From Actinomycetota bacterium (GTDB taxonomy: Bacteria; Actinomycetota; Aquicultoria; SURF-47): 64,000 nt of DNA. The translations under genes and the position numbers were made by a program. Shown here piece by piece: positions 1 through 39,147 of the stretch (its first letter is position 1; every line of letters starts with the position of its first letter). The notes below the pieces were generated by a model. That model made no database searches. It saw nothing but the letters and a program-made list of their open reading frames with translations, and was not told where the DNA came from. The DNA lies in NCBI GenBank assembly GCA_003599235.1, contig QZJE01000013.1:540-64539 (forward strand). The letters are read 5' to 3'.

Positions 1-3000
1 TAAGAGTCCCTATAGCATTCGTTGGATGCATATCTGAATGGTCGGAGATTCCCCAATAAAAGCGATTTATATCATTGTTGTCTTGCTGCATTACCCAGTT
101 AGTGCCATAACGATGGTTGTTGTCGATAATATTCGCATAGGCAACTTGGCTATTGCCTGGATTGACCCACATTGAAATAGAGAATGTCTGATAGCCAAAC
201 CAATTTCCTAGTTCTATGCAATCATCGCTTCCATCAAAATTAGCCGACTTATTAAACTTAGCGTCCGTGGAGTTAGTTAGGCCGCCGACAATCGTTCCGT
301 TGTGGACTCCAGTTTCGTCTTTAACGGTATTACCGGTTTGGCTGTCTAGGGTCCAAAAGCCCTGCATGCCTTTAATATCGTATTCCTCGAATACCCTGTT
401 ACCATCGCTAGCACTAACAGCATTGGCATTACCATAATACATATAGATTGTTTTGGCTGATTTAGCTAGCAGTGACGGAACTTTCAACCAAACAGTGGCT
501 TTAGTCCCATCAGTTTTACTTTCTATCCAGTATGGAATCTCAGATATTTTATCTGTATCAGTAAAACGCAAGTCAGAGAAATCTGACTTCATTGCCTCTT
601 TATACTCAAGGACTACTTTAACTTGATAGTTATTTAGAGTTTTAGGATTAGTAGTATTGTCAATTCTTAAAGGTGCTCTTTTAGTCCAGCTGTCACTATA
701 CCAATCTCTAATAGTAGTTGGTTTGGATACCGATACTGTTGGTTCAACAGAGCTAAGCTTGCGTATAGTAATATGATCTGCAATTTTTTCCATCTGGTTT
801 TGGTAACGACTGGTGATTTGCTCTGCAGTTAGCGGCTGATTATAAATTTTAACCTCATCTAAACAACCTCTAAAATACTGATCTGTAGTTGAATTAACAC
901 CTAAGCGTCCGATTCTTACAGGACTTCCTTGCCCATGTAAACTACCTGTCTCTGAGCTTACATCAATGGGGCCGGCAATGAGCTTGCCATCAAGATAGCC
1001 ATAAGCTGTATTTTGCTCTCTGTTAACGACTAAAACAAAGTGATGCCAAGCCCCATCGCTTATTCCTTGACCTGGTGCTTGTATGTATTTGCCATCACCC
1101 ACTCCGTCGCTGACTTCTGCCCAGAAGCCGCCGTTTCTGTGTTGTAGGATAAACCCCTGAGCCCAGCCAGAGCCACCGGTAGCCATTATCGTTCCATGTT
1201 CATTGTCTACATCGCTTGCTTGCCTTTTAGACCAGGCCTCTACGGTGAAGCTGCCATATGATAAGTCCACATTTTGAGGACTTTGTGTTTCCAGATAATC
1301 ATCATAGCCGTCGAAATAAGCCGCCCGGCCAAACTTAGCGTCTGGCACAGTAGAGGCTGAGCCAAAAGAGTTGGCATTATTAATGCCTATTTGGTCAGCT
1401 ACCTCACCAGGAGTTCCATTCCACGAAGCTTCATCGAACTTATAAAAAGCACTAATATTTTGCATATCAAAGCCATCAAAAGTAGCCACACCATCGCTAG
1501 CACTCTTTGCTAGAGGATTGCAGTAGTACATATTTACGGTCTTAAGTAATGCGGCTTTTATCTCTGGAACCCTAACCCAAATGGTAGCCCTAGATGATTC
1601 AGTATAATTTTCTATCCAGTAGGCAAGCTTGGTTAAATTATCAGAATCAGTAAAACACAGGTCAGAGAAATCAGATTTCATGCCTGGTTGATAGTCAACT
1701 TCTAGCTTAACGGGATAGTCGTTTAGGGTATTTGAGTTCTCTGTATTATCAAGGGTAATTTCAGAGCGCTTTAGCCAATCTTCATTAAACCAATCGAGGT
1801 TAAGTGATACCTCGGGCTCGTTTTGTGCACTTTTGCAAACATTAAAGACATCGCCCATCTTTTGTGTTTGATTCTTAGAGACACTTGAAACCTCATCTGC
1901 ACTAAGCGCCCGGTTGTATATTTTGAGTTCATCCATGGCCCCCTTAAAATACCTGGCTGCACCACTGTCTAGCTCTCTGCCAATCATTAAATCAGTATTA
2001 TCAACAATCTGAGGAGTTGTTGGGGCACTAGCTTTTTCTATTCCATTTATATATGTTTTTGCAGTCTGTCCGTTATTGGTGAGAGTTATATGATTCCAAT
2101 TATCCCAGCTAATATTTCCTGCCGGTGTATTAATAAACTCGTTAACATTATTAGCTGTGTGGAAACAATGATGAATATAGCCTGTAAAGTTTAGCCAGGC
2201 ATTGAAGTTCCTTCCAGGCTTGCCAACTAATCCTTTAAAGTCCTCATTAGGCTGACCATAGGGCTTCAACCAGAAGTCAACAGAGTAATTACTGATACGC
2301 AAACTCTGTGAATCAGAAGCAGTGATGCTGTCATTGAGACCATCAAAATAAGCAGCGCGGCCGAACTTTGCATCCGAGGTTGTTGCTGTCCCAGAGCTGC
2401 TGGTTCCACTATTTTGCCCTGTTTGGTCAGCCACATTTCCAGAAGCTGCTCCTTCTATAAACTCGGTTGCCTTGGATCCTTGCTCTAGTTGAGCTGCATC
2501 GAAATCATAATTAACACCAGGTGTATGCATATATACCTGGGCTCTTAAAGCTCTGGTAAGGGAAGCAAAATTCCTAATCGGTAATGTTACGCTATAGCGT
2601 TGCCACTCTTTGGAGTTGGTTGAAAAATAATTTCCAGCAGCATAATTGCCACCTGTCATATCGAAAAGAGCTAGTGTGCCGCTAATATTTTGGCCACCAG
2701 GAGATTTAATATAAATCGAAAAAGTGTAGTTGTCGTTAGCGCTTGCTGATACGTTTACATCTTGAAACCATGAATCTCCATTGTTTGGCGTTATAATATT
2801 TGTTTCTAAATAATTATTGCCGTGCTGTGAGCTTGCTTGGTTTGAATAAACTGCATGATTCAAATTTCCATAATGGCCCCAATTGGTAAGACCACTCTCA
2901 AAACTAGCATTAGTTAGCAGATTTGACTTAAAAGCATCCTCGTCCATATTGTAGAAAGCTGCTAGACCGCCAACATTGTAAGCATCAAAAACCTTACTGC

Positions 3001-6000
3001 CGTCGCTGGCACTGCCGGCATTAGGATTACCATAGTACATATAGATTGTCTTATTAGAGTTAGCTTTTATCTCAGGTACCTTAATCCATACTATGGCCTC
3101 TTCTGAGCGCTTATAGCTTTCTATCCAATAGTTAAGCTCAGCTACCCCGTCTGAGTCAGTAAAACGCAAGTCCGAGAAGTTATTCTGCATTTTGCTGACA
3201 TAAGGTACTTTTACTTTAATTTGATAGTCGGTTAAGGTGCTTGAACTATCTTTATTGTCTACTTTTAAGCTAGCCCTATTGGGCCAAGCCTGGCCATACC
3301 ATTGCTTAGTGGTAGTAGGATTGCCAGAAATGACAGGAATTAAACCCAAGTCTGAACCAGAAAAACCGTTTCCATTGCTTTGACTATTTGCTTCGGGATT
3401 TCCGTAGTACATATATATGGTTTTTATCGAAGTGGCTTTAATTAACGCAACTTTTACCCATACAGTAGCTTGCTTGGAGTCTGTTTTATCTTCTATCCAA
3501 TAAGGTAGCTCAGTTTGTTTGTTGGAGTCAGTGAAACGCAAGTCGGAAAAGTCGGCCTTCATGCCGGTGTCGTAATCGATGCTTATCTTAACCTGGTAAT
3601 CAGTTAAGTCCTCGGGGTTATAAAGATTATTAATCATCAACGGAGCTCTTCTAAGCCAAGCTGAATCGTACCAGGTGTCTGGATTAGTGGGAGTGTTATT
3701 ATCGCCTTGTAGAACTAGCTGGCCGTTGGCGGGGTCGTGATAGGCGTTAGCGTTCTTGCTGTTCCATAGCACTGGGTTAAATACTGAGAAGTCGTCTGCA
3801 AATAGATCATAGAGGCCGCTAGACTCCTTAGCAACTGACTTAATGATATTGCCGTTCTTATCGTAGTAATAGCGGTAGGTTGATAGTTCATCTACCCCCT
3901 GAGCTCCGTTGTCCCTAGCATTGCTGATTGAAGTTAGCTTGGAAGCAGCATCGTAGTCATAGTTAGTAATTAAACTGCTTAATGCATTGAGGGGACTGGT
4001 TATTTGGTCGATATTATTGCTCTTGCCGCCTTTGTCGTAGGAGAAATCAGACAGAGTTTTGCCACTATTATTAGAAATATAATCAAGCTTACTACTTGAA
4101 TTATATTCGTACCTCGTTTCAACCGTTGAATCGTTAATATTCTTTATTTTGTCATCTGGATCATATTGGAAATTAATAACTTTGTTCGAAGCATCTTTAA
4201 CGCTACCAATCATGTCATCATTGTTATATCTATATTCATATGATGTTTGAGATTGACCACTTGCTGGATTCTTAGTTACAGTTTCTACTAAATTTCCCAT
4301 CCAGTCGTATGAATTTTCTACGTCAACACTAGACTGTATATTTCCTTCGGCGTTCAGCTTAGTTAGGTTGCCAGCACTATCATAGTTTAGGCTTTGATTT
4401 TTTTCATTTGGTTGAATAATGTTCTCAGTTAAACCCGAATTATTGTAGTTAGTTTCAACTGTTTTTACGTTTTGATCGGTTTCAGTAGTTACCTGATCTG
4501 AAGCGTTATAGGCGGCAGCTGTGGAGGTGTTGTCCGGAGCGATTACTTTAGTCTCGTTTTGATTATTATCATATTCATAGTTTGTTTTATTTAGACTTCC
4601 ATCTTTAACAGTAGACAAGTTGTCGTTTTGATTATAGTTATAGCTAACTACATTATTTTTACCGTCAGCCGTTGTTCTTTCGTTTCCCTCCTTATCATAA
4701 GTAGTTTTAGTAACATTGCCAGTTTGATCCCCCGTAGCTACTTCATTGCCGGCTTTATCGTACAGACTCACTGAAGTACCTTCAGGGCTTCCCTGCTTAG
4801 TAACGTTACCAAAGCTATCATAGGCATATGCGGTCCAGTTACCGTCAGAAGCAGTTTCTTTGATTAAGCGGTTTAGTTTATCGTATTCATAGGTAGTCTC
4901 ACCATTGCGAAAGTTGTTAATTTCTTTTGTTTTGTTTCCATTTTCATCATACTGATAAGAATACCTAGCCCCTTTTTTATTATTTTTCTCTAATAGCTGA
5001 CCTGCCACATTGTATGAGTAGGTATTATAGCCCTTGGTGGTCGAGCTTCCATCGGTATTGTTGTTAAAGGCCTGAACAAAAATAACATTACCTGCAGCAT
5101 CATAAGTATTTTCAGTAACTGAATAGTCTCCGTTATCATTTGCCGGCTCTTTTTTTCTAATAACTCTTCCAAGTTCATCATATTCGGTGAGACTAAAGTC
5201 CATCCCTGCTTTTTGTTCTTTAGTTTTTCTGCCAAGTGAATCGTACTCAAAGGCAGTACTTACGCCTACCGGGTCTATTGTTTCTATGATATTGCCAAGA
5301 GCATCGTAACGATTATTAGCAACTCCTCCTTCAGGAGTTGTTTGAGTTACTTGATTGCCATTGTCGTCATAGGCATAGCTAGTAGTATTGTTATCAGGGT
5401 CAGTCTCTGATAAAAGATTGCCTTTGTCGTCGTAAGTGTAGTTGGTAGTCTTACCTGTCGGCGTGGTTTCAGCCAATACCAAGTTCTGTTGATTATATGA
5501 GCGTTCAGTAACCCTATGTCTGGCACTATAGCGAGCTTGGTCAGCGAGATATATTTGCTCATCTTCATTTGCATCATGGTCATGATTGATTTCTTTTAGC
5601 ACATTACCATTTGCATCGTATTCATAACTAGTAAAAGTCTTATCCTTATTAATCTGTTTAACAAGATTGTAATCGTTATCATATTCAAAATAGCATTCGC
5701 TGCCATGCTTAAATGGCTGGCTAAGCTCGGCGGAGGGAATATTTTCTTTAGCAAAGGCCGGGCCCCAGATATCGTTCCATAGTTGCTTTTTCTCCCACTG
5801 GATTTCTTTCCTGGCTACCACTTCAGCCTCTAAGTCATCAGCATCTTCGTCAAAATCATCGTAGGATTCATCTAGCCAATCGAGGTCTTCTTCATCTAAT
5901 CCCAGCTCTTCTTCATAGAAATCTTTATAGACCGTATAGTAGACAAGATATTCATGAGCAATTTCTTGCTCAACTGAGGCTCCCGGAAAGAAAGGTTTTT

Positions 6001-8722
6001 GGGCTTCTGTAATTACTGTTGAGCCTTCAGGCTCTCCAGCTACTGTTTTTAGCCCTTCTGGGTTGAAATAATATAGATATTCATAGCCTTTTGGGTCAGC
6101 TACTTTGGTGTAGCTTACTTCTCTTTCGTTTGTAGTCCAGGGATTATCGTTAACATTCTCAGTAACATATTCAATATTAATACTGTTACCATTAGGAAGC
6201 TGGGTGGTAACTAGGCTGGTAACGGTCGAGACTCCCCCACTTAAATAGCTAACTTTCGTTTGGCCACCCAAGGGGTTAGTGATAGTTTTGAGACCGTCTA
6301 CATCATAGCTATAGCTGTATGCAACCTCTGTGCTATTTCTTGGTAAGGGGTAAGTAACTTTACTTAAGTTATCTCCGCTAAAAGTATCGTTATATTCATA
6401 TGAATAAGTGCGGCCGGTAAAGTCCACTACGCTTACAACTTTGTGCTCTAGGGCACTCTTGTAATTGAATTTAATAAACCGGCTAGGATTATTATCATCA
6501 ACAATTTTTTCAATATGCCCGTTATCATTATATGTAAAGCTGATTGAGTTACCGTTCTTATCTAGCTCTTTTGCTGCTCTGCCGAAGGAGTCGAACTCAA
6601 CAATGCTTAAGTCTTTGCGTTTTAGAACAAAAGTGTTATTTTCGTTTAATACCAGGTCGTCAGTAGTTCCTTTGGGCCTTTTAAAAGAACCGTTTGGTTC
6701 CTTAGTGTACTCAAAAATAGCTCCTGTTTCATCGGTTAAAATAGCAGTTGAGCTGCCATTGTAATCGACCCTTAGACAATCCGGATAAGAGCTTACACCC
6801 CGTCCAAAGATTCTGGTAGTTTTATCATGGCTATTGTAAGTTCTTGCGACCCTCATTGAGGGGCCTTGGGTTTTGATAGATACGTCACTAGCTTCCAGCA
6901 TCAGGTTGCCGTTTTTAAGATCTACATTTACTCCGCTGTATTCCTTGTAGGTGCGGTAGCTTTTACGTCCATAGTCATTGGCCTCGTATGTAATAACTAA
7001 CCTAGGAGCTTTAGAGCCATCTTCTGATTCTGATGAATGAAAGACCATCTTGCGGTAGGTGTAAACATCATCAAAATACACTTGGCCAGAAGGCAGAGCC
7101 GCAAAATGAAGCCCATTTATCATGCTGTTGCCAAGAGTTATTTGACTAGGTATGAAGCTTAGTTTCTGCCAGCTGCCACCAGGAGGCAATCCCCCAATAT
7201 TTACCTTGTTAGGAAAATAAATATCCTCTTCATGGCTGCCATAGGTGGCAATTGCTCCCCAATAACCGGTGTGCCACGCATCGCCATTTTGTAAACTTAT
7301 GCCCAAATGCTGAGGCGCTGATTGAACAAAACACCAAGCCTCTATTGGGCTGTCTGTTGGAATATAGTAATCATTGCTGGTATTTTTCCAGGAGTTGTAA
7401 ACACGTCCATTAACACTTGTTGATTTAGTGCCTGAATGCAGTGGGGATCCTACCCAAGACCAGCTAGGATTAGTTGGCAATGCATCGTCAATAAGATAAA
7501 CCTTACTGGTATTGTCTAACATAAAGCCGTAATTCTGTGTGGGGCTTGCCTGCCAACCTTTTACAATGTCAGTTACATTAAAAGCTTGGTTGTCAACAGT
7601 ATTATCTGAGGCATCTATTTTTGAATTAGCATCATATTTATTGCTTTTGCTATTCCAGGTTGCAGTTGAATCCCAATTCTCAGTCATTTTGTAAACCCTG
7701 CTTTTAGCTTGGCCTTTATAGTAGGGGGAGCCAGCATTGATATTTGTCTCTGAATTATTAGTGCCGTAATCAGGCATAATATTTTGCAACTTAGCTTCGG
7801 TAATATTGGCGTTACCGGGAATAGAGTTAAGAGGATATCTAATAAGTGTTTTATATTGCTCACTCTCTGACTTAGCTCCCACTCTTAAACGAGTGTCGCT
7901 TGCAAATGAAGAATCGGGTTGAGCAGATGAAACATAGGTATCGGCATCTGGGCGTTCTTGGGTAATAAAAGTTGGGTCAATTTTTACCGGATAAACTCGT
8001 TTAGGGTCTGCTAGCCATTTTCTATCGGCAACTACCCTTAATATGTAGGTAGAGCCGGCTCTTCTTCTCAATGCCATAGTCACGTTAGGAGAATAAGCTT
8101 CTGCTTGAGCTGAGTCTGTCATAAAAGGTTTTTCGATAACTATTGAAGTTTTCTTGTTCTTATCTGTCAAGTTAATAGAGCCGTCTTTTTGAGGAGATGG
8201 GATTAAGTTTCTTAAGTTAAGCTCGAAGGTAAAAACGTTGCTTCGCGGTTTCTTTTTTAGGATAATTTGCTCTTTTAGGCGCCCTTGCTCAGTTAAGTAC
8301 TCTAAATCAGTATCGGTTGTAATATTACTGTAAACTACCTTGTTTTTCGCTTTTTTGATTGGCTTAAAAGCGCGTTTTTTTTCACCTAAAAGCTTGTAAG
8401 TTAACCCAAGATTTTTATTGTCTTTTTTTGCTAGAGAAAACAAATTACTTTGATTATCGCTAAAGTCTACCGTCAGGTTGTTTTTATTTACTTCCTGGGT
8501 AATTTCAGTTGTATAAGTACCGTCTGGATTAAGATAGGTTTTGGAATTAGCTGTTCTTTTATCAGTAAGCTCTACCTTGGTTGGCTTTGGCTTAGCGTAA
8601 GTAATGTTCATTAAAGCGCCTTTAAGGCTTCCCAGGAATGAAAAGTTAACAGGAATAGTGCTAATTATTTGAAACAACAGGCAAAAACAGATGGTTAATG
8701 CTGTTAAGCGTCTAACCCTCAT
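1..8722 (-). CDS. Giant secreted surface protein, partial (start at 8722, C-terminus beyond window position 1); YD/RHS-type repeats, four DUF2341-like repeats, LamG/concanavalin-like regions
   Basis: Minus-strand frame checked at anchor points 8720, 4757, 3542, 3170, 1661 and 572, all in the same phase; the span was not scanned codon by codon, but the track lists no other long ORF across 8.7 kb. ATG at 8722..8720 overlaps the TGA of the upstream gene (ATGA). N-terminus MRVRRLTALTICFCLLFQIIS is signal-peptide-like. YD motifs (e.g. LYDKAGNE near 4757). Motif DFSDLRFTDS...YWIE...IYMYYGNP recurs four times (DNA near 575, 1665, 3170, 3545). Absent from the ORF track because no stop lies inside the window. 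Confidence 0.8.
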   Translation of the reverse strand, partial: MRVRRLTALTICFCLLFQIISTIPVNFSFLGSLKGALMNITYAKPKPTKVELTDKRTANSKTYLNPDGTYTTEITQEVNKNNLTVDFSDNQSNLFSLAKKDNKNLGLTYKLLGEKKRAFKPIKKAKNKVVYSNITTDTDLEYLTEQGRLKEQIILKKKPRSNVFTFELNLRNLIPSPQKDGSINLTDKNKKTSIVIEKPFMTDSAQAEAYSPNVTMALRRRAGSTYILRVVADRKWLADPKRVYPVKIDPTFITQERPDADTYVSSAQPDSSFASDTRLRVGAKSESEQYKTLIRYPLNSIPGNANITEAKLQNIMPDYGTNNSETNINAGSPYYKGQAKSRVYKMTENWDSTATWNSKSNKYDANSKIDASDNTVDNQAFNVTDIVKGWQASPTQNYGFMLDNTSKVYLIDDALPTNPSWSWVGSPLHSGTKSTSVNGRVYNSWKNTSNDYYIPTDSPIEAWCFVQSAPQHLGISLQNGDAWHTGYWGAIATYGSHEEDIYFPNKVNIGGLPPGGSWQKLSFIPSQITLGNSMINGLHFAALPSGQVYFDDVYTYRKMVFHSSESEDGSKAPRLVITYEANDYGRKSYRTYKEYSGVNVDLKNGNLMLEASDVSIKTQGPSMRVARTYNSHDKTTRIFGRGVSSYPDCLRVDYNGSSTAILTDETGAIFEYTKEPNGSFKRPKGTTDDLVLNENNTFVLKRKDLSIVEFDSFGRAAKELDKNGNSISFTYNDNGHIEKIVDDNNPSRFIKFNYKSALEHKVVSVVDFTGRTYSYEYNDTFSGDNLSKVTYPLPRNSTEVAYSYSYDVDGLKTITNPLGGQTKVSYLSGGVSTVTSLVTTQLPNGNSINIEYVTENVNDNPWTTNEREVSYTKVADPKGYEYLYYFNPEGLKTVAGEPEGSTVITEAQKPFFPGASVEQEIAHEYLVYYTVYKDFYEEELGLDEEDLDWLDESYDDFDEDADDLEAEVVARKEIQWEKKQLWNDIWGPAFAKENIPSAELSQPFKHGSECYFEYDNDYNLVKQINKDKTFTSYEYDANGNVLKEINHDHDANEDEQIYLADQARYSARHRVTERSYNQQNLVLAETTPTGKTTNYTYDDKGNLLSETDPDNNTTSYAYDDNGNQVTQTTPEGGVANNRYDALGNIIETIDPVGVSTAFEYDSLGRKTKEQKAGMDFSLTEYDELGRVIRKKEPANDNGDYSVTENTYDAAGNVIFVQAFNNNTDGSSTTKGYNTYSYNVAGQLLEKNNKKGARYSYQYDENGNKTKEINNFRNGETTYEYDKLNRLIKETASDGNWTAYAYDSFGNVTKQGSPEGTSVSLYDKAGNEVATGDQTGNVTKTTYDKEGNERTTADGKNNVVSYNYNQNDNLSTVKDGSLNKTNYEYDNNQNETKVIAPDNTSTAAAYNASDQVTTETDQNVKTVETNYNNSGLTENIIQPNEKNQSLNYDSAGNLTKLNAEGNIQSSVDVENSYDWMGNLVETVTKNPASGQSQTSYEYRYNNDDMIGSVKDASNKVINFQYDPDDKIKNINDSTVETRYEYNSSSKLDYISNNSGKTLSDFSYDKGGKSNNIDQITSPLNALSSLITNYDYDAASKLTSISNARDNGAQGVDELSTYRYYYDKNGNIIKSVAKESSGLYDLFADDFSVFNPVLWNSKNANAYHDPANGQLVLQGDNNTPTNPDTWYDSAWLRRAPLMINNLYNPEDLTDYQVKISIDYDTGMKADFSDLRFTDSNKQTELPYWIEDKTDSKQATVWVKVALIKATSIKTIYMYYGNPEANSQSNGNGFSGSDLGLIPVISGNPTTTKQWYGQAWPNRASLKVDNKDSSSTLTDYQIKVKVPYVSKMQNNFSDLRFTDSDGVAELNYWIESYKRSEEAIVWIKVPEIKANSNKTIYMYYGNPNAGSASDGSKVFDAYNVGGLAAFYNMDEDAFKSNLLTNASFESGLTNWGHYGNLNHAVYSNQASSQHGNNYLETNIITPNNGDSWFQDVNVSASANDNYTFSIYIKSPGGQNISGTLALFDMTGGNYAAGNYFSTNSKEWQRYSVTLPIRNFASLTRALRAQVYMHTPGVNYDFDAAQLEQGSKATEFIEGAASGNVADQTGQNSGTSSSGTATTSDAKFGRAAYFDGLNDSITASDSQSLRISNYSVDFWLKPYGQPNEDFKGLVGKPGRNFNAWLNFTGYIHHCFHTANNVNEFINTPAGNISWDNWNHITLTNNGQTAKTYINGIEKASAPTTPQIVDNTDLMIGRELDSGAARYFKGAMDELKIYNRALSADEVSSVSKNQTQKMGDVFNVCKSAQNEPEVSLNLDWFNEDWLKRSEITLDNTENSNTLNDYPVKLEVDYQPGMKSDFSDLCFTDSDNLTKLAYWIENYTESSRATIWVRVPEIKAALLKTVNMYYCNPLAKSASDGVATFDGFDMQNISAFYKFDEASWNGTPGEVADQIGINNANSFGSASTVPDAKFGRAAYFDGYDDYLETQSPQNVDLSYGSFTVEAWSKRQASDVDNEHGTIMATGGSGWAQGFILQHRNGGFWAEVSDGVGDGKYIQAPGQGISDGAWHHFVLVVNREQNTAYGYLDGKLIAGPIDVSSETGSLHGQGSPVRIGRLGVNSTTDQYFRGCLDEVKIYNQPLTAEQITSRYQNQMEKIADHITIRKLSSVEPTVSVSKPTTIRDWYSDSWTKRAPLRIDNTTNPKTLNNYQVKVVLEYKEAMKSDFSDLRFTDTDKISEIPYWIESKTDGTKATVWLKVPSLLAKSAKTIYMYYGNANAVSASDGNRVFEEYDIKGMQGFWTLDSQTGNTVKDETGVHNGTIVGGLTNSTDAKFNKSANFDGSDDCIELGNWFGYQTFSISMWVNPGNSQVAYANIIDNNHRYGTNWVMQQDNNDINRFYWGISDHSDMHPTNAIGTL

Positions 8723-11436
8723 TTTTTCACCTTTACTTTGATAGCTTTTGAGTTGCTAGCCTTAAATCTTTGTTCTCCGGCAAAGACTGCCTTGATTGTA
8801 GTTGTTTTTCTAAAACGGATTGCTTTGGCAAAAACTCCCTTGGAATTGGTTTTAGCTTTAGCAATTACCCTCCAGACCCACTCTTTAGCCCTAATTGTTC
8901 TGCCATTAACCTTCTTTTTTATAATACGTAAGGCTTTGGCTTTAAAGTTTATCCCTTTATTAGCCAGTGCTCTGCCATTGCTATTTTTTAGTTGGCCCTT
9001 AATAACGGTTTTTTGACCTGCCTTTATTACATATTTCTTGGCTGCTATTGATAACCTGGTGCCAAGAACTTTTATTGCCGGAGAAGGGTTGATTGGATTA
9101 ATGTTTGGGGCTGGAGCACTGGGAGTAGGGCTTAGAACTGGTAGGGCTATTACTACCAAGGCTTGTGTAGCCTCATCAGATGAAGCTCCTTCATCATCTA
9201 TCGCTATAAACTTAATTACATGTGGACCTATCGATAGATTATTAGCATTAAAGCTGATTGCTCTAGAAAGCTCTCCATCGACTGAAGAAGTCCAAATATA
9301 TTCATCAATATCGCCATCTTCATCATTAGCGCTGCCTATAAAACTAACACCTTGGCCCTGAATTGCAGGATTAGGAGTTACAGACTCAATTTTAGCAGTT
9401 GGTTTTTTATTGGTTTGAGCAATAACGGTTACTTCTGTTTCGGCTTCGCTTGACCATAGCCCGTCATCATCTTTAACTTTGAAATATATTGTATGCTGAC
9501 CTGGCGATAAATAATCAGTATCAAATGACTTTTCATCTGAGAGATCATCGTCTATGGAAGAACGCCAACTATACTCGGCGATGCTTCCATCTGAATCATC
9601 ACCATGGCCACTAAAATAAACTGCCTCTGCCTCATTAACAGTTTCCGGGCTTGCTAAATCAATAACAGCAGTGGGTGGCTGATTCGGGGGTTGTATCTCC
9701 AAATTGGCAGATACTTCATCAGACCAAGCACCTTTGTTGTCCTTGACCTTTAAATAAATAGTATGTAGGCCGATTAATAAATCTCCTACACTAAACATCC
9801 TTAAGCTAGGAAGTGTTTCGCCCATAGAAGAGCGCCAGCTATATTCAACGATAGATCCATCATCAATTCCTAATGCTTCAAAAAAAATTGGTGTGTCAAC
9901 GTGCGCAGTTGTTGGATTAAGATAGTTTATCAAAGCAACAGGCTTTTGATTAATATCTATTATAGCGGAAACTTCATCAGAGAAAGCACCGTCGTTATCC
10001 CTAACTTTAAAGTAAATTGTATGGAGTCCAGGAGGCAGGTTGTTAATAGCAAAATCTTTTTGATTTGATAAAGGTCCATTAATGGAAGAACGCCAGTAAT
10101 ATTCTGTTATACTCCCATCTGTATCTAGTCCGCTGCCACCAAATGAAATATTATCCCCCTGGTTAGCTGGGTTAGGACTAATGAGATTTATAGTAGCCGT
10201 TGGAGCTTGATTAATTACCTCTAGAGTGCTAGACGCTTCATCTGACCACTCACCCTCACTATCTCTTACCTTAAAATATATAGTGTGAGCACCGACCGAT
10301 AAAGTACTGGTATTAAAACTGGCTTGATTAGATAGTTGCCCATCTATCGAAGAACGCCAACTGTACTCTCTAATTATTCCGTCTATATCATTTCCCATAC
10401 CATCAAAAGCTACACCTTGCTTTTGAAATGCAGGATTTGGAGTTATCAAATTTATTATAGCGGTTGGTTTTTGGTTGTTAATAATAAAGAGTTTTGTATC
10501 ATCAGCTGTTACTACTTGAGTTGAAACGTTAATTAAATCTGCATTCTCAATTGTTTGAGATGCCTTGTAATATTTTGTTTTATATACTTGGGCATCATCA
10601 TAAAACCTTAGTTTGTAATTACCATTTCGAAGGCCATTAAGCTGATAATTACCCTGAGAATCGGTTGAAGTACTGAATAAATAAGTCGAATTGGCATCAA
10701 ATAAACCGACTTCAATATATTCAAGAGGCTGGTCAATGTTATTTGTAACTTTACCTATTATTTGAGAAGGCACCTCTAATTCAGCATTAATATTCTCTAA
10801 TTCTTGAGTAGAGTTTAAGTGAACAGAGCTAGCGCTAGTAAAATCTGATTTATCATTATAATATTCATAAGCGTAGCTATCTGCTAAAAATAAGACCTTG
10901 TAATCCCCGGAAGGTAAGGCGCTTATTTCATAGCTTCCATTGGACTCACTATATCCAGAGCTAATATAATGGCCATTTAAGTCAAAAGCAGATATCTCAA
11001 CATTTTCAACAGGCAAGCCGGCGTTGTCTGTGACAACTCCTTTTATCAAAGACGCTGGCTCTAAAATACTATTATTAATACTAAGGCTTGAACCGTTACT
11101 AAGCGAAATTGAATTAGCTTCTTCTAGACAATTGCTGTTTTGATAAAATTTTATTGCATAATAGCCAGTGTAATCGATGAATTTGATTTTATAATTACCG
11201 TCGGCTAAATCTGTAAAAGTATAGTTGCCGAAAAAGTCAGTGAATTGAGTATCGAGTGGCTCTCTATTGCTATCAAATATAGTCACTTCGATTTCTTCTA
11301 TTGCTTGGCCAGATGCATTGTTGACTTTCCCGGTAATTGAACCTGACCCTAAACCATAAGAAGGATTACTAAATAATATAAGAGATAAAGCTATTAATAT
11401 TATAACCAAGCCCAACTTCTTTAGATGCATGTACAA
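8719..11436 (-). CDS. Secreted repeat protein: signal peptide, three Cna-B / carboxypeptidase-regulatory-like domains, six ~88-aa PKD-like repeats, Lys/Arg-rich C-terminal module
   Basis: 905-aa ORF. Repeats of the form KPTA.INLI.PNPA.QG..V.F.G.G.D.DG.I.EY.WRSS..G.LS....F....L..G.HTIYFKV.D..G.WSDE occur six times. Track start is TTG at 11436; an in-frame ATG at 11430 is the more likely start. Confidence 0.8.
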   Translation of the reverse strand: MYMHLKKLGLVIILIALSLILFSNPSYGLGSGSITGKVNNASGQAIEEIEVTIFDSNREPLDTQFTDFFGNYTFTDLADGNYKIKFIDYTGYYAIKFYQNSNCLEEANSISLSNGSSLSINNSILEPASLIKGVVTDNAGLPVENVEISAFDLNGHYISSGYSESNGSYEISALPSGDYKVLFLADSYAYEYYNDKSDFTSASSVHLNSTQELENINAELEVPSQIIGKVTNNIDQPLEYIEVGLFDANSTYLFSTSTDSQGNYQLNGLRNGNYKLRFYDDAQVYKTKYYKASQTIENADLINVSTQVVTADDTKLFIINNQKPTAIINLITPNPAFQKQGVAFDGMGNDIDGIIREYSWRSSIDGQLSNQASFNTSTLSVGAHTIYFKVRDSEGEWSDEASSTLEVINQAPTATINLISPNPANQGDNISFGGSGLDTDGSITEYYWRSSINGPLSNQKDFAINNLPPGLHTIYFKVRDNDGAFSDEVSAIIDINQKPVALINYLNPTTAHVDTPIFFEALGIDDGSIVEYSWRSSMGETLPSLRMFSVGDLLIGLHTIYLKVKDNKGAWSDEVSANLEIQPPNQPPTAVIDLASPETVNEAEAVYFSGHGDDSDGSIAEYSWRSSIDDDLSDEKSFDTDYLSPGQHTIYFKVKDDDGLWSSEAETEVTVIAQTNKKPTAKIESVTPNPAIQGQGVSFIGSANDEDGDIDEYIWTSSVDGELSRAISFNANNLSIGPHVIKFIAIDDEGASSDEATQALVVIALPVLSPTPSAPAPNINPINPSPAIKVLGTRLSIAAKKYVIKAGQKTVIKGQLKNSNGRALANKGINFKAKALRIIKKKVNGRTIRAKEWVWRVIAKAKTNSKGVFAKAIRFRKTTTIKAVFAGEQRFKASNSKAIKVKVKK

Positions 11437-31103: not shown

Positions 31104-32585
31104 TTATTTTTCGGGCCTAAGATGAGGAAATAAAATAACGTCCCTTATCGAATAAGAATCTGTTAGGAGCATTATCAGACGGTCGACGCCAATTCCTAAA
31201 CCACCGGCCGGTGGCATACCGTATTCTAGTGCCCGCAAAAAATCCTCGTCTAGCTGACGGTCGACTACTTCCTTGCTTTCTATCTTTAACTGCTGTTCAA
31301 AACGCTTTCTCTGCTCGATAGGATCAGTTAGCTCTGAGAAAGCATTAGCAATTTCCCTTTGAGCAATAATTAACTCAAAACGTTCTGTAACATTAGGATC
31401 ATTCCTATCTCTTCTGGCTAAAGGCGAGACTTCCACCGGAAACTCCGTTATAAAAGTAGGTTGGAATAAATGGTGTTCGACATTTTTTTCAAAAATAGCG
31501 TTGATTATCTTGCCTTTCCCCCACTCTTTATCTGCCGGGGCACCGGCTTGCTTAGCCGCTTTTCTTAAATCGTTAAGGCTATCTTCGTAAGTTAAGTCTA
31601 ACTTAGAGTATTTCTTGATAGCTTCAAGCATAGTTAAGCGCTCAAACTTCTTTCCAAAATCCAGCTCTTGCTCCTGATAAGTAACCTTAGTATCTCCGGT
31701 AGCTTCAAGAGCCATAGTTTTAATAAGTTCTTCTGTCAAAGCCATCATATCTTCGTAATCGCCGTAAGCCTGATAGGCTTCCAGCATAGTAAACTCCGGG
31801 TTATGGCGAACTGACAAACCTTCGTTACGAAAATTACGTCCTAACTCAAAAACCTTCTCATAGCCGCCTACCAATAAGCGCTTAAGATAAAGCTCAGGAG
31901 CGATGCGTAGATATAAATTAGTATCGAGTGCATTATGAAAAGTCTTAAAAGGCCTAGCAGTTGCCCCACCATATATTTGTTGCAAAACAGGGGTATCCAC
32001 TTCTATAAAATCCCGGTTAATAAAGAAATCACGCAATGACTTAATAGCTTTTTCGCGAATAGCAAAGACCTGTTTAACATCAGGATTCATAATGAGATCC
32101 GTGTAGCGTTGGCGATACCTTATCTCCACATCCTTTAAACCATGCCATTTCTCCGGCAGAGGACGCAAAGACTTGGTAAGTAAAGTAAAGCTTTTGGCTT
32201 TTATCGAAAGCTCACCGCGCCTAGTCTTAAAAACTTCTCCATTAACACCAACAATGTCGCCAATATCTAAGTGAGAAAAAAGGTTGTATTGTTCCTCCCC
32301 CAGCACATCTAGGGCAAGATACAGCTGGATAGAGATATTGTTTTCAGCTAAATCAGCAAAGGAAGCTTTGCCATGACGTCTTAAAGCCATTAGACGGCCG
32401 GCTACAGAAAAGTACTTGTTAGATGACTCTTCGGGTTCTAGTTTTTCGTATTGGTTAATTAAATCAGCAATTTGAGCAGTGCGCTTAAAATTGTAAGCAA
32501 AAACAGGTATCCCCTGATTGGTAAGGGTTTCAAGCTTTTTTCTGCGTTGCTGCATTAATTGATTTAGCGGTATATCAGCCATCAT
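31104..32585 (-). CDS. lysS: Lysyl-tRNA synthetase, class II
   Basis: 493 aa. Class II motifs ([15 protein letters not shown]). Confidence 0.9.
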
Positions 32586-32621
32586 TCTCCTAATAAATTA
32601 AGACAATGATAGCATAATATA

Positions 32622-35600
32622 CTATTTCACTATCAGCCAATTACTAGCCACTCTAGCCTGAGTATTACCAGCCCTGTCTGTAGCTAACACGTAATATCTG
32701 TACTTGCCTCTTTTAAGTCTTATCCTTATTCTCTTGACTTTCAGCTTATTGATTGCCGTTAAACCCAGTCTAATTGTTTTATAAGTTTTTAAGTAGACTC
32801 TCTTTTTGCCCCTTATTTTCTTAACTGCCTTTTTCTTTATTACTAAAGATACTTTAGCTTTACTCGATAGCGAGTCAGCTACTTTCCAATAGAGTTTAGC
32901 TATTTTTCCTCTTCTAACAACAGATTTTTTAGGAGCATAGGTCTTTGGTTTAGTGTTATCTACCGTAACCATCTGAGTTATTTGGTTTTCGTTTCCTAAG
33001 ATGTCTCTTACAACATATATTAGCTGATGAGGACCATCATTAATGCCTCTAGTGTCCCAGGTAACCGATTTTGCCCCGCTACCTACAGCTGAAGTTGCCG
33101 GATCATCAATGTAGACCGTAAAGGAGCCTATACCACTAGCATCAACAAATGACGGGGACAATACTACTTTGCCTTTTACTAACTGACCTTCTGATAAGGT
33201 ACTCATAGCTAGAGTTGGAGGAGTAGTATCATAGTTATAAACAAATGTTTGCCAAGGACTTACGTTTCCTACATTATCTGTCGCCCTTACTTTAAAGTAG
33301 AAAGTGCCGTCTGAAGGTACTGATACTTCAGGATAAGTGTTAGACTCTGCGCTATCGGTAGGAACATCTCCATTGATATTATTGCCGAAGTAAATATCAT
33401 AGCGGCTAAAACCGCTGCCTTTGTTGCCGTCTTTAGAAGCTTCCCAATAAAAGCTTGGAGCTTGATTATTTGTCCAGCTCCCACTAGCTATTCCGTGAGT
33501 CTCGATAATTGTGCCTGGAGTACTTGGAGCTGACGGATCACATTTATAGGTAAAAACCGTTTCAGCAGCAGTTTCATTGCCAGCCTTGTCTTTTACCTTA
33601 ACTCTTAGATAATATGTTCCCTCAGCTGTTATCTTGCCCGGCTCTAATAGATTAGAAGTTAAATAACCGGTGGTTGCTGTTTGAGTAGCTGAAGGTGTCC
33701 CATTTGGGTTAGTGCCGAAATAATAAGTATATCCTTCAATTCCGCTAGAGGTATCTTGCCAGTTCAGTTCAAACGAAGGGTTGCTTTCAGCAGTAAAAAC
33801 ATCACTTTCTACATTATTGTTTTCTATTACAGCAACATCTTGTTTTTCCGGTGCAGTTATGTCAGCACGATAGATAAATTCCCTCCAACCACTGGTCTTG
33901 CCAGCTAAGTCTTTAGATCTAACCTTTAAGTGATAGATGCCATCTTCGCTGATTGATGGAGGAGTAAAACTACGGTTGTTTATAGCCGTCGACTCAAAAG
34001 GAGGAGTGGGAATCTCATCGGTATCCCAAGATATTTCATACTCAGCTAAGCCGGATGTTCCACCAGCTGGCTCATCCCAGATAAAGCTGGGGTTGGTTCT
34101 CTTTGTCCAAGGATCATTGTTAGCTATTCCATGGATTTCAGTAATTGCTCCTGGCTCAGAAGGAAGAACTGAAGAAAACCTATAGATAAAAATCTCTGCC
34201 GGAGAGCTTACATTGCCGGCATTATCAATAGCTACTACTTTTAGAAAATAAGTGTTATCAGCCGTTATTATAGGCGGCTGAAAAGTGTTGCCGCTGATTG
34301 GAGTGCTTGGAACCTGAGAAGGATCTGTGCCCCAGTAAACTCTATAACCAGCAACAGAACTTGTTTCATCAATCCAGTTAAACCTAAAAGAAGGATTGAT
34401 AAGTGAGGTATAGCTGCCGCTTTCTGTGCCATGAGTTTCTTCAATAGCAGCCATCCCTTCCATAGGTTTAGGTGTTTCAACATCTGCATTATAACGATAT
34501 GTTTTTGGATCTGATATATTCCCGGCTGTATCTTTTACCCATACCTTAAGATAATATGAACCATCTTCATCTATGGTGGGGTTAAAAGTTTGCTCGATTT
34601 GATCAGGCTGATTAGGTATTAAAGCAGTTGGATTTGTTCCCCAATATATTCTATAAGTATCTAGTCCGCTAATATTGCAATCAGAGCTTAAGTAGAAATT
34701 AGGGCTTATGTTATTTGACCATGGACCATTATCGGGTACATCTGCCGTTATATTATTCATGATTGGCTTGGAGGCGTCATACTTAAAGACAAATACAGTT
34801 TCGGTAGCTGCTTGGTTACCGGCATTGTCTTTAGCTCTAACTCGCAGGTAGTAAGTACCTTCAGTTGTCAGGGCAGCCGGGTCAATGGTGGTTCCGGTTA
34901 CATAAGTTGCAGGAGTGCCAGATGAGCTAGGGCCGAAATAATAGGTGTAGCCGGCAAGGCCGCTCTCATCATCGTCACCGTTTAACTCAAAGCATGGATC
35001 AGCGTTGTTAGTCCACTCATTATCTACTACTGCGTGGGTCTCCATTGCAGTTCCGTTTGTTGGAGAGCTAACATCGGCTCTATATGTAAAAATATCTGAC
35101 CAAGCACTTACTCTTCCAACATTATCTATCGCCCTTATCCTTAAATAATAAACACCGCTTTCAGATAAGGTAGCCGGTGTAAACGTAGAGTTATTTACAT
35201 TATCATACGGAGGAGGACACAAAGAATCAGTTCCAAAATAAACGTCGTAGCTCTCGATTCCGCTACCACTATCAGTTGAGTTAGCCCATGAAAAACTAGG
35301 ATTGTTGATATTGGTTACAGGGTCATTGCTATTATAGCCATGAATCTCTGTAATAGAGATAGGCTTTGTGGGAGCATTTCCATCGTATTTATATATATAC
35401 TGTTCAACGGCACTTTCTTTGCCGGTATTATCTCTTGCTTTTACTTTTAAGTAATAAGTGCCCTCAGCTGTAAGCGGGCTAGGTGTAAAATTATTACTGG
35501 TTGTTTCAGCAGCTGGAGTCCCGGCACTGTCAGGACCAAAGTAATAGATATATTTCTGAATACCGCTTTCATTATCTTCCCAATTAAATCTAAAACTAGG

Positions 35601-36674
35601 ATTATTTTTACTTGTCCAGGTTTCGCTCTCAATACCGCTTGTCTCTTCAATGGCATCTTTTCCCGTTATGACATCAGGTGGCAGAGTATCTACAATATAG
35701 GTTCGATTAACTGTAGCCACATTATTAGCCCTGTCATAAGCAGTATATGTAACCGTATGAGCTCCGTTGCTGGCAGCATCAGTAGGCACAACCCAGGAAT
35801 GGTTAAAAGGATACCCTGTAATCTCGATATTATCATCATCAATAACAAAAGCAGTTCTATCATAATCCAAGCCTGAATCCTCTTCATGAGGCTGGATTGT
35901 AAAATTTACCGAGCCGCTAACCAAGCTGTTATCTGCGGGGCCGGTAAAGTCAACTGTGGGAGCAGTTGTATCGTTTGCAAAATTATCACTGCCTTTAAAA
36001 ATAGCATTGCCAAATGTGCTGGGACTATATAATGAAGAGCCACTTGGCCATACCCCAGCATAACTAGGAGTTTGTACAGTTTCACCTACAGACAAGCCAA
36101 ATGTTTTACTTGTAGTAGATGTAAGGCCTAATTTAGAAAAATATATCTTAAACTCGGCTTCCCAATAAGTTGAACCAACAATTCTCTTGGCGCTCCATTT
36201 GTTGGTTGTCTCACTCGAGTAAGTAACACTGGTATTGTAGCCATACCCATTTCCTTTAGCTTCAATATTTTCTCCATCAGATTTTCTGATAGTAAGCATG
36301 TAATCGCTACTGTCAGCTGAATTGCCATTATGGTTTAGATCTAAGCCAATCCTGGCAAAGTTGTTAGAAGAATTGCCGCCGTCAGGGATATAGAATCCAA
36401 CGTACAAATAACTTCCGTTTGTTTTAAAATAAGCACATCCCTGTTGGCCGGTAACAGTAGTAAAATATGCTCTTTTTTCCCCGCTAGCAGTATCTGTCCA
36501 TTCGTTTACACTAGGGTCTATATTTCCATCATAGGTAACAGTTGTTCCACTACTAATATTTGCTCTACTTAAAGCATCGTCGTGAGCAAAAGAAATTGAG
36601 GGAAACATGGCAGCGGGAATTAAATTTAAGACTAAAACCAAAGATATTAACGAAGCTATTGTCTTCCTTATCAT
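32622..36674 (-). CDS. Large secreted surface protein with about nine FN3/Ig-like repeats and a Lys/Arg-rich C-terminal module
   Basis: 1350 aa. Signal peptide. Repeated motif YYFG.....TP......T...P..L..EGTYYL.V.A.DNAGN. C-terminal ~110 aa alignable with the C-terminus of the 8719..11436 protein. Confidence 0.8.
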   Translation of the reverse strand: MIRKTIASLISLVLVLNLIPAAMFPSISFAHDDALSRANISSGTTVTYDGNIDPSVNEWTDTASGEKRAYFTTVTGQQGCAYFKTNGSYLYVGFYIPDGGNSSNNFARIGLDLNHNGNSADSSDYMLTIRKSDGENIEAKGNGYGYNTSVTYSSETTNKWSAKRIVGSTYWEAEFKIYFSKLGLTSTTSKTFGLSVGETVQTPSYAGVWPSGSSLYSPSTFGNAIFKGSDNFANDTTAPTVDFTGPADNSLVSGSVNFTIQPHEEDSGLDYDRTAFVIDDDNIEITGYPFNHSWVVPTDAASNGAHTVTYTAYDRANNVATVNRTYIVDTLPPDVITGKDAIEETSGIESETWTSKNNPSFRFNWEDNESGIQKYIYYFGPDSAGTPAAETTSNNFTPSPLTAEGTYYLKVKARDNTGKESAVEQYIYKYDGNAPTKPISITEIHGYNSNDPVTNINNPSFSWANSTDSGSGIESYDVYFGTDSLCPPPYDNVNNSTFTPATLSESGVYYLRIRAIDNVGRVSAWSDIFTYRADVSSPTNGTAMETHAVVDNEWTNNADPCFELNGDDDESGLAGYTYYFGPSSSGTPATYVTGTTIDPAALTTEGTYYLRVRAKDNAGNQAATETVFVFKYDASKPIMNNITADVPDNGPWSNNISPNFYLSSDCNISGLDTYRIYWGTNPTALIPNQPDQIEQTFNPTIDEDGSYYLKVWVKDTAGNISDPKTYRYNADVETPKPMEGMAAIEETHGTESGSYTSLINPSFRFNWIDETSSVAGYRVYWGTDPSQVPSTPISGNTFQPPIITADNTYFLKVVAIDNAGNVSSPAEIFIYRFSSVLPSEPGAITEIHGIANNDPWTKRTNPSFIWDEPAGGTSGLAEYEISWDTDEIPTPPFESTAINNRSFTPPSISEDGIYHLKVRSKDLAGKTSGWREFIYRADITAPEKQDVAVIENNNVESDVFTAESNPSFELNWQDTSSGIEGYTYYFGTNPNGTPSATQTATTGYLTSNLLEPGKITAEGTYYLRVKVKDKAGNETAAETVFTYKCDPSAPSTPGTIIETHGIASGSWTNNQAPSFYWEASKDGNKGSGFSRYDIYFGNNINGDVPTDSAESNTYPEVSVPSDGTFYFKVRATDNVGNVSPWQTFVYNYDTTPPTLAMSTLSEGQLVKGKVVLSPSFVDASGIGSFTVYIDDPATSAVGSGAKSVTWDTRGINDGPHQLIYVVRDILGNENQITQMVTVDNTKPKTYAPKKSVVRRGKIAKLYWKVADSLSSKAKVSLVIKKKAVKKIRGKKRVYLKTYKTIRLGLTAINKLKVKRIRIRLKRGKYRYYVLATDRAGNTQARVASNWLIVK

Positions 36675-36834
36675 ATATCCTCCGATAGATAATCTTGCCA
36701 GCTAATGGTAGTAGTGTAGAGTAGGGCTAAGAATAATAGTATTAGGTAATGATAACATCACTGTAAGTGGTTTGTCAATAGTTTAACAATCTTTTGAAAA
36801 GGGTTAAAAGGATAGAACGAATAGATACCGTAGA

Positions 36835-37323
36835 TTATTTTTTGTGGTTGCGGCTAATCTTTAAGATACGGTATTGCAGCTGGCCTTGGGGTGTTTCTAC
36901 GGTAACGGTTTCTCCGGCTTTTTTATCCATAATAGCTTGTCCAACTGGAGATTCATTCGATATCTTATGGTTTGTCGGGTCTGCTTCGGCAAAACCTACC
37001 ACTAAATAATCCATTTTTTCTTTAGTTTCTAAATCCTTTAATGTCACCAAAGAGCCTAAAGAAACTTTGCTGGTAGTAGCCCGGCGGTCATCAATAACTT
37101 TAACGTTAGATAGCATATCTCTTAGCTGAGAAATACGGCCTTCTACAAAAGCTTGCTCATTTTTGGCATCGTCGTATTCAGAGTTTTCGCTTAGGTCGCC
37201 AAACTCAATTGACTGCTTTATTCTATCAGCCACTTCTTTTCTCTTGGTAGTGGTTAGGTGATTAAGTTCTTCTTCTAGCTTTTTATACCCTTCCGGGGTT
37301 AACACTACTTCTTTTTGCGACAT
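36835..37323 (-). CDS. greA: Transcription elongation factor GreA
   Basis: 162 aa. Coiled-coil N-terminus, FKBP-like C-terminus. Confidence 0.9.
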   Translation of the reverse strand: MSQKEVVLTPEGYKKLEEELNHLTTTKRKEVADRIKQSIEFGDLSENSEYDDAKNEQAFVEGRISQLRDMLSNVKVIDDRRATTSKVSLGSLVTLKDLETKEKMDYLVVGFAEADPTNHKISNESPVGQAIMDKKAGETVTVETPQGQLQYRILKISRNHKK

Positions 37324-37538: not shown

Positions 37539-38120
37539 ATGAAAAAATTTATTACCCTTTTAGTTCTTTTTTGCTTAGCAGCTATGATGATAACCAATTT
37601 AGTTTATGCTGGCAGTCAATCACCTCAATGGGCTAAACCATGCCGTATACAAAAAAACACTTATTGGACAAAGCTTATTTTTTATACTGGTAAACTATCC
37701 ATGTGTTATATGCCGGTTCCAATGAGTAAAGCATTTAAAAATTCCTATTTTTTCTTAAGTGCTACTACTCATGCCACAACCGTAAAAAATGAAAACACCA
37801 GAGATTACACAAAACAGTACGACTGTTACTGGATTTATGCAAAAGCTACCGCCAGTATTAAAGGTTACTGGAAATACGGCAGTAGAGCTAAAAAGTATTT
37901 TAAGCACACTATGAAACCCAGAGCAGACAGTAACTACTCATCTAAAGTAAGCTACCGTAATTCGATAGCCCATTCTCTTGGTTACTGGCAAGCTCCAAAA
38001 GGCTATAAGTTCCAATCCTTTTATGCTTCTGCTAAAGGCTCGCATGCCTTAAAAATACGCAGAACTGGACTAAAGTACACAGTTTATACTAAGACTGCTA
38101 TGAGAAGATCCAGACCTTAG
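37539..38120 (+). CDS. Secreted Tyr/Lys-rich protein; possible lactococcin-972-like bacteriocin domain
   Basis: 193 aa. RBS AAAGGAGGTG. Signal peptide. Segment THATTVKNENT...YWIYAKATASIKG resembles, from memory, the Lcn972 core THSATVVNNNTG...VWAKATVG. Confidence 0.6.
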   Translation: MKKFITLLVLFCLAAMMITNLVYAGSQSPQWAKPCRIQKNTYWTKLIFYTGKLSMCYMPVPMSKAFKNSYFFLSATTHATTVKNENTRDYTKQYDCYWIYAKATASIKGYWKYGSRAKKYFKHTMKPRADSNYSSKVSYRNSIAHSLGYWQAPKGYKFQSFYASAKGSHALKIRRTGLKYTVYTKTAMRRSRP

Positions 38121-38205: not shown

Positions 38206-39147
38206 GTGAATAAAAAAAAATTATCCCTTAGATTTATTATTATTTTTACCTTAATTATTTTTATTCTCATAGCTAGCTGCAAACAAAAAGATGTTAGCGA
38301 CCAGTCAAGCCAAGAAACAGAAGCCGTTGGAACTAGATTTTCAATTTCTAATCCACCCTTAAAAGAAGACGACCCAGGTACTAAACTTGTTTATACACTA
38401 AATCCCAATGCCGCCTTTAAGGCCACTTATGAATTAGAAAACTTAAGAAATAACCGAAATTATCTGCTACTTTGTTTTTTAGACTACAACCAAGAACCGT
38501 TAATCATCGATAACAAAAAAAACTCTCTTTTTAAAATCAATGTTAAGCCTGGACAAAAAAAGTACTGGCGGTTTAAAACAAATACGATAAAAAACGGCTT
38601 TCATGATTTTGCTACCCTGTTGATTTGGGACCCTGAGATTCATAGGCTCGACAAAGATTACAGAATAGAAAGTGACTTTAATCTAATAGCAACCAACCGA
38701 GCCAATATCATTGCTGATGGTTCAAACCCACCTGCATTTTCATTTATCACTGCCCCAAGCAAGCAATCCCAAAGCAAAGAGCCATATGATGGAATAAGAA
38801 TAAATAAGCAAGCTAATAACCTTGATTACTGGTTAATAGAAAAGGCTTTATCCGGTAAGAAAATCAATTACTATATTCATGTAGCCAGCAGTGAAAAACA
38901 ACCAGTAACTTACGCCTTAATTGCTTTACTTGATTATAAGCAAATACCGTTAAATAAATCCAAAGTGTTGTTTGCAAAAGTAAACCCTAATCAAGTAGTT
39001 ACTTTTCCGGCAAGCTTTACGGCTCCTATGCAAAAAGGAACTCATGAGCTAATGCTTATCAGGATTAAAAACCCTTATAAAAGGTTAACAAGCGATGATG
39101 ATACATTAATAGAACCAAGTATCCGAGTTCCTATCGTTGTTAAGTAG
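38206..39147 (+). CDS. Hypothetical lipoprotein with internal two-domain duplication
   Basis: 313 aa. Lipobox LIASC. Duplicated motif YLLLCFLDYNQEPL / YALIALLDYKQIPL. Confidence 0.6.
   Translation: MNKKKLSLRFIIIFTLIIFILIASCKQKDVSDQSSQETEAVGTRFSISNPPLKEDDPGTKLVYTLNPNAAFKATYELENLRNNRNYLLLCFLDYNQEPLIIDNKKNSLFKINVKPGQKKYWRFKTNTIKNGFHDFATLLIWDPEIHRLDKDYRIESDFNLIATNRANIIADGSNPPAFSFITAPSKQSQSKEPYDGIRINKQANNLDYWLIEKALSGKKINYYIHVASSEKQPVTYALIALLDYKQIPLNKSKVLFAKVNPNQVVTFPASFTAPMQKGTHELMLIRIKNPYKRLTSDDDTLIEPSIRVPIVVK

Follow-up and report, generated by a model that had tools for sequence, protein, structure and literature searches.

Two proteins encoded in a 64,000-nucleotide stretch of a metagenome-assembled genome (MAG) labelled Actinomycetota (assembly GCA_003599235.1, contig QZJE01000013.1, positions 540 to 64,539; the whole stretch is hereafter the window) were found to end in compact, extremely basic regions, named here tail A and tail B. 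Protein A is encoded by the open reading frame (ORF) at 8719..11436 on the minus strand (RJQ32080.1, C4562_03370, annotated as hypothetical protein) and protein B by 32622..36674, also on the minus strand (1350 amino acids (aa), RJQ32099.1, C4562_03470). Tail A (8722..9066, minus) covers residues 791-905 of protein A, its last 115 aa, with a net charge of +32; tail B (32625..32954, minus) covers residues 1241-1350 of protein B, its last 110 aa, and belongs to an unnamed basic C-terminal immunoglobulin (Ig)-like family. Somewhat more probably than not, the two tails are cationic Ig-like domains of convergent origin that tether secreted proteins to anionic polymers of the wall without a covalent bond. 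Charge, position and cargo suggest this envelope binding.

The sequence-only reading of the window had described both C-termini as rich in Lys and Arg, and this was borne out by their composition. The Lys+Arg fraction of the final 110 aa was 0.30 in protein A and 0.33 in protein B compared to 0.09 and 0.08 in the whole proteins, and every other ORF in the window had a fraction of at most 0.23 over its final 110 aa. The net charge of the same 110 aa was +31 with an isoelectric point (pI) of 12.0 for protein A and +34 with a pI of 11.5 for protein B, on bodies that were acidic (net -61 and -74, respectively, pI about 4.3). All earlier 100-aa blocks of the two proteins had a net charge from -12 to 0, and the Big_13 repeats of protein B itself were acidic.

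The same reading had aligned the two tails with each other as one shared module, which did not survive comparison. BLASTP of tail A against tail B gave an E-value of 6.7. Smith-Waterman alignment (BLOSUM62) returned the stretch that the earlier reading had quoted (KAKALRIIKKK... with KAKVSLVIKKK...) at a score of 46. Shuffled sequences scored 40.3 +/- 6.9 (p = 0.21), and the real pair thus did not stand out from shuffled basic sequences. Profile comparisons were also negative. With filters off (phmmer --max) there was no cross-match between tails A and B, and the hidden Markov model (HMM) of the tail-B family, built from 77 members, did not match tail A. Protein A reached an E-value of 1.1 against this HMM among about a thousand ORFs, with its weak stretches falling outside tail A. 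A comparison of tail A with family B by hhalign gave a probability of 0.15%, and the profile-profile comparison of A3 with A1 gave a probability of 0.9% (E 0.061) with a co-linear alignment. The nearest Pfam families differed as well, tail A lying near Big_3_5 and tail B near Big_13, FlgD_ig and PKD. By sequence, tails A and B are not detectably homologous and belong to different families, and nothing places one nearer to the other than to the remaining Ig families. As far as detectable sequence homology goes, the idea that both are copies of one homologous module is therefore already refuted, and it can be given hardly any credence, even though both are about 110 aa long, C-terminal and Lys/Arg-rich, share a KAK...IKKK...-type stretch and have profiles that align co-linearly. 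Both domains are probably Ig-like sandwiches, and a very remote common ancestry within the superfold is possible.

The Lys-rich insertions of the two tails were also considered as a shared cassette, which was ruled out by three comparisons. An HMM made from the insertion-bearing members of family B only gave tail A -4.9 bits. Pairwise shuffles of tail A against nine insertion-bearing family members gave a lowest p of 0.021, which was not significant after multiple testing, and blastn of both tail coding stretches found only short A-rich words in common.

The tail-B family was delimited by a phmmer search with tail B, exhaustive over 1.84 billion representative proteins, which produced 449 matches at E <= 1e-3. 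Family statistics were taken from the best 150 of these 449 matches. A total of 83 of the 150 spanned the whole 110-aa query and 77 of those 83 ended at most 6 aa from the protein C-terminus, whereas the other 67 had in common only the ...Y.YATD.AGN... strand motif of Big_13-type repeats. The 77 family domains were 98-115 aa each, with the consensus ..P.T.AP..A.V.RG..AKLY.KV.D....KA.V.I.IKK...K.VKT..LG....N.L.......L.KG.YRFYVYA.D.AGN.Q.N.A.N.L.V, in which P3, D93 and N97 were invariant and G96 and Q99 were also conserved. Tail B itself matched the family profile (about 100 positions) over HMM positions 1-100 with a domain E-value of 3e-35. No model in Pfam or NCBIfam reached threshold for the family. 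Below threshold, Big_13 was brushed by 36 of 45 members, and Y_Y_Y and FlgD_ig (12 of 45) were brushed as well; tail B scored 15.3-15.4 bits against Big_13 (PF19077) at profile positions 70-93 of 102, under the gathering threshold of 27 bits. The AlphaFold model of tail B, with a predicted local distance difference test (pLDDT) score of 97, showed a PKD/Ig-like sandwich with a long Lys/Arg-rich beta-hairpin (32754..32861, minus; model residues 32-67, strands E32-47 and E50-67). Overall, the tail-B family is a genuine and apparently undescribed domain family.

The positive charge was a constant property of this family. Net charge ranged from +5 to +34 with a median of +19, and 74 of the 77 domains had +10 or more, while outside the domain the member proteins were acidic (median -3.9 per 100 aa). 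The R/(K+R) ratio among members ran from 0.03 to 0.91 and the GC content of their loci from 0.35 to 0.69, with the charge kept throughout; in relatives of 67-69% GC it was maintained through Arg. Because the charge is kept in Lys-rich and Arg-rich members alike across this GC range, selection appears to have acted on charge and not through nucleotide bias. In addition, 68 of the 77 members terminated in Lys or Arg. The hairpin of tail B is the site of a Lys-rich insertion that was carried by 9 of the 77 members. In one further tail-B member (L085:410-2413) the central hairpin was enlarged by about 150 residues of Lys/Arg/Tyr-rich low complexity, and among the members compared the hairpin is a hotspot for Lys/Arg-rich expansion, of which this protein is the extreme case.

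The domains found ahead of tail B were diverse and extracytoplasmic. They included S8 subtilases with fervidolysin-type prodomains, an M36 metalloprotease, CARDB and CBM96/DNRLRE domains, FN3, BNR/Ycf48-like and DUF1565 proteins and a SpoIID-domain protein (peptidoglycan-acting). All of the family members with a named taxon were from Actinomycetota MAGs. At least five further tail-B proteins were apparently from the source MAG: RJQ32186.1, whose contig has the same recorded length as that of proteins A and B (212,622 bp), RJQ31878.1 and RJQ31832.1, both with C4562 locus tags, and RJQ32564.1 and RJQ32608.1, whose assignment to the MAG was by neighbouring accession numbers and organism label only. 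Four of these five carried the Lys-rich hairpin insertion, as in tail B. The apparent recurrence in the genome, together with the C-terminal position and the diverse cargo, agrees well with the earlier proposal of an anchoring or sorting module on secreted proteins as far as the tail-B family is concerned, and only the word "shared" has to be given up. Such a role is well supported for tail B; for tail A it is plausible, by analogy and from a single relative.

A related metagenome contig (L081:8504-19226) held three tail-B genes in 11 kb, encoding two S8 subtilases and one SpoIID-domain protein. These were interleaved with gatB and a gene for a UPF0182 membrane protein, and one of the three products had a 24-aa Pro-rich extension after the domain. 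A CXXCH protein adjoined the tail-B genes in this contig.

For tail A, no relatives were obtained by a word-index homologue search, and the last PKD domain plus tail A as a word-index query produced a PKD-only match; a word-index search with tail B likewise gave nothing useful. Scans of genomes and metagenomes for tail A turned up no relative, and they also missed the source contig. Searches of PDB sequences were negative both for tail A and for the A3 profile, made from tail A and the one relative described next. One relative was present among the loci fetched for tail B, namely the C-terminal domain of L086:311-1084, a protein of 258 aa with a signal-peptide-like start and a basic end domain of net +19. 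Tail A aligned with this domain end to end with a Smith-Waterman score of 65, a value that none of 3000 shuffles reached (shuffle mean 29.8 +/- 5.6, z = 6.3), whereas the same domain scored below the shuffle mean against tail B (z = -0.7), which also speaks against a single module. The next gene after L086:311-1084 ends in a tail-B domain, so that both kinds of basic tail occur side by side in another organism.

Comparison with Pfam gave an indication of the fold of tail A. The L086 domain matched Big_3_5 (PF16640) at positions 3-87 of 88 (E 0.0018, 19.2 bits) and also touched Big_1 and CarboxypepD_reg, all below threshold. Intact tail A matched the last strands of Big_3_5 only (positions 49-87 of 88, E 0.006, 16.9-17.6 bits). 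Tail A contains a Lys/Arg-rich insertion of 13 aa, LRIIKKKVNGRTI (8893..8931, minus), which the alignment of the two shows to be missing from the sole relative found, and when it was removed the match widened to positions 8-87 of 88 (E 0.0011, 19.9 bits). The gathering threshold of Big_3_5 (35.5 bits) was reached by neither tail A nor the L086 tail, and E-values of 0.001-0.01 would indicate a distant relationship only. Because removal of the insertion widens the match and the L086 relative matches over nearly the full length, tail A is most readily taken for a diverged Big_3_5-like Ig domain that carries a cationic insertion. Hydrophobic alternation was of no help in judging beta structure, and this was so for tail B too.

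In the proposed mechanism, the deep-branching, uncultivated actinobacterium behind the MAG would secrete proteins A and B through Sec as acidic surface proteins of multiple Ig domains, and each would end in a compact, extremely cationic beta-sandwich domain from one of two different families. Tail A would have come independently to lie at the extreme C-terminus, to carry about +30 of net charge and to contain a Lys-rich insertion. The cationic domain would then bind electrostatically to polyanionic wall polymers, either teichoic-acid-like or other acidic glycopolymers, and retain its cargo on the surface. A retention module fits the observations because the domain is folded and C-terminal, its charge is conserved on an otherwise acidic protein, the cargo is varied and the expansions add charge. 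No LPXTG-like motif was present in the final 60 aa of either tail, nor was there a terminal hydrophobic helix or stretch. SLH, CWB2, LysM, GW and SLAP had no Pfam match in protein A or B, and the Pfam families listed at E <= 1 for the two proteins were Ig-like, PKD and CarboxypepD_reg only.

Several points weigh against this mechanism. DNA, minerals or foreign cells are equally conceivable targets of a cationic domain, and the tail domain could be cleaved off after export. As for tail A, single-sequence AlphaFold modelling gave an all-helical artefact (pLDDT 54), leaving its fold to the sub-threshold Big_3_5 match, and with a single relative found it is at most a candidate for a recurrent module.

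The cationic domains might instead be adhesins whose anionic targets are external, for example extracellular DNA or biofilm matrix, acidic polysaccharides, mineral surfaces or other cells, and not the wall of the producer. The adhesin-like Ig arrays, carbohydrate-binding modules and proteases among the cargo would suit such a function, and the multihaem cytochromes encoded in the window suggest a surface-associated lifestyle. This function is rather unlikely. The SpoIID-type cargo acts on the peptidoglycan of the cell itself, and a C-terminal grip on external material would not alone hold the cargo at the cell, proteins A and B being without any other anchor.

It is less likely again that a dedicated export or attachment machinery recognises the tails, in a manner comparable to the type IX secretion system (T9SS), and that they are cleaved or covalently processed after transport. 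A folded Ig-like domain in a strict C-terminal position on very diverse cargo follows the logic of the T9SS C-terminal domain, and the terminal Lys or Arg of 68 of the 77 family members would be in keeping with this reading. However, neither tail matched the T9SS C-terminal domain models, Por_Secre_tail in Pfam (E <= 10) or TIGR04183 in NCBIfam (E <= 1), the members with a named taxon were all Actinomycetota MAGs, and no conserved candidate partner gene lay beside the tail-B genes in the window or in loci L081-L086. In addition, an extreme, variable and expandable charge is not needed by a specific recognition signal.

Finally, it is scarcely credible that the tails have no special role and are ordinary terminal Ig domains or propeptides enriched in Lys by low-complexity drift in an AT-rich genome: the GC content of the window is about 40%, the final codons of tail A share sequence with the ribosome-binding site and start codon of the gene that follows, and C-terminal propeptides are known for secreted proteases, but the bodies of proteins A and B have only 8-9% Lys+Arg, the tail B domain is well conserved (including its invariant P3, D93 and N97) and confidently folded in the predicted model, many cargos are not proteases, and drift is disfavoured because the charge is conserved across GC backgrounds, through Arg in the relatives of 67-69% GC.

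A wider form of the wall-anchoring reading can be put forward only tentatively. Deep-branching, uncultivated Actinomycetota might possess an undescribed surface-display system in which folded, super-cationic Ig-like domains at the extreme C-terminus, from at least two convergent families prone to Lys/Arg-rich hairpin expansion, tether dozens of secreted enzymes and adhesins to the envelope; a partner dedicated to the system, or an anionic wall polymer peculiar to the lineage, may be part of it. If the anchoring function is true, the tails would represent a new anchoring module that has no Pfam or NCBIfam model, and the surface proteome of an uncultivated actinobacterial lineage, with its proteases, wall-remodelling enzymes and adhesins, would become recognisable to annotators. 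The compact domain of about 100 aa would be a candidate tag for non-covalent surface display. Two unrelated Ig families with a like charge, position and insertion habit would then indicate convergence driven by envelope chemistry.

The ORF of protein A has 905 aa, and the deposited product has 903 aa with its start ATG at 11430. The domain order from the Pfam scan was three CarboxypepD_reg and five PKD domains, a linker and tail A, preceded by a signal peptide identified by inspection. The linker between the final PKD domain and tail A, LPVLSPTPSAPAPNINPINPSPAIKV (9067..9150, minus), is Pro-rich in the translation, and the last PKD match stops before it. The interval 8719..9060 (minus) corresponds to the final 113 aa of protein A and the stop codon, and the protein ends in ...KAIKVKVKK. 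At 8719..8722 (minus) the TGA stop codon of protein A overlaps the ATG start of a downstream giant gene within the sequence ATGA, an arrangement suggestive of coupled translation. The codons for the terminal KVKVKK of tail A (AAA GTA AAG GTG AAA AAA; 8722..8740) contain a Shine-Dalgarno-like GGTG directly 5' of this ATG. Because the GGTG word falls in these codons, the extreme end of tail A is also constrained by the ribosome-binding site of the next gene. The giant ORF (2..8722, minus; more than 2907 aa) leaves the window at its left end, with its C-terminus beyond the window. Its start resembles a signal peptide, its domains are DUF6531, RHS repeats, four DUF2341 and LamG, and it looks like a protein of the polymorphic-toxin or wall-associated type.

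In protein B, the Pfam scan showed about 10 Big_13-type Ig repeats, a Big_7-like domain and tail B, again behind a signal peptide identified by inspection, and the protein ends in ...ASNWLIVK. Its gene is flanked by greA and lysS (31104..37323, minus). The gene row beside it is Bacillota-style (mcsB-like kinase, clpC, radA, disA, ispD, ispF and gltX) in a MAG labelled Actinomycetota. The LysRS had at most 57% identity to every species representative in GTDB r232, and that collection therefore contains no close relative of the lineage. Next to protein B, on the opposite strand, are two small proteins without a Pfam match (37539..38120 and 38206..39147, plus), whose N-termini resemble signal peptides or those of lipoproteins. 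Multihaem c-type cytochrome genes were located at 60193..61218 and 62931..63998 (minus), both with CxxCH motifs at the C-termini of their products and one of the two with a Paired_CXXCH_1 match. No tRNA genes and no Rfam matches were found in the window.

The proposed mechanism is not categorically new, since precedents exist for non-covalent anchors of cationic character and for C-terminal sorting domains with an Ig-like fold. The T9SS C-terminal domain (PF18962 / TIGR04183) resembles tail B in that very diverse secreted cargo, proteases included, ends in this Ig-like beta-sandwich of about 80-100 aa. It is not notably cationic, and it belongs to Bacteroidota-type diderms with dedicated machinery, whereas the named tail-B members are from Actinomycetota MAGs. 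Among Ig-like families, Big_13 (PF19077), FlgD_ig (PF13860) and PKD-type repeats differ from tail B, which is terminal instead of tandem and highly cationic. Big_3_5 (PF16640) is the nearest family to tail A and to the L086 tail; tail A departs from it in its much stronger basic character and its insertion. In Listeria, InlB and Ami are anchored without a covalent bond by basic C-terminal GW modules that bind anionic lipoteichoic acid. These modules differ from the tails in their SH3-like fold, tandem repeats and Gly-Trp signature, and had no Pfam match here. GW domains are also mentioned in a passage of PMC10714868. The SLAP/SlpA domain (PF03217) differs from the tails in that it had no HMM match in whole-protein and tail scans, in that tail B has a PKD/Ig-like fold, and in its host, the tails being from Actinomycetota and not Lactobacillaceae. 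The nearest precedent for the proposed function is nevertheless this domain, which fixes Lactobacillus S-layer proteins and cell-envelope proteases to the wall non-covalently. In the SlpA/SLAP domains of the Lactobacillus proteases PrtB, PrtL and PrtH, as described in section 3.3.6 of PMC10535647, Lys accounts for 17-32% of residues, the pI is above 10 and attachment is mainly electrostatic. Like the tails, SLAP/SlpA domains are C-terminal and Lys-rich with few acidic residues and, according to PMC10535647, occur on subtilases and on S-layer or surface proteins; tail B, too, is found on S8 subtilases.

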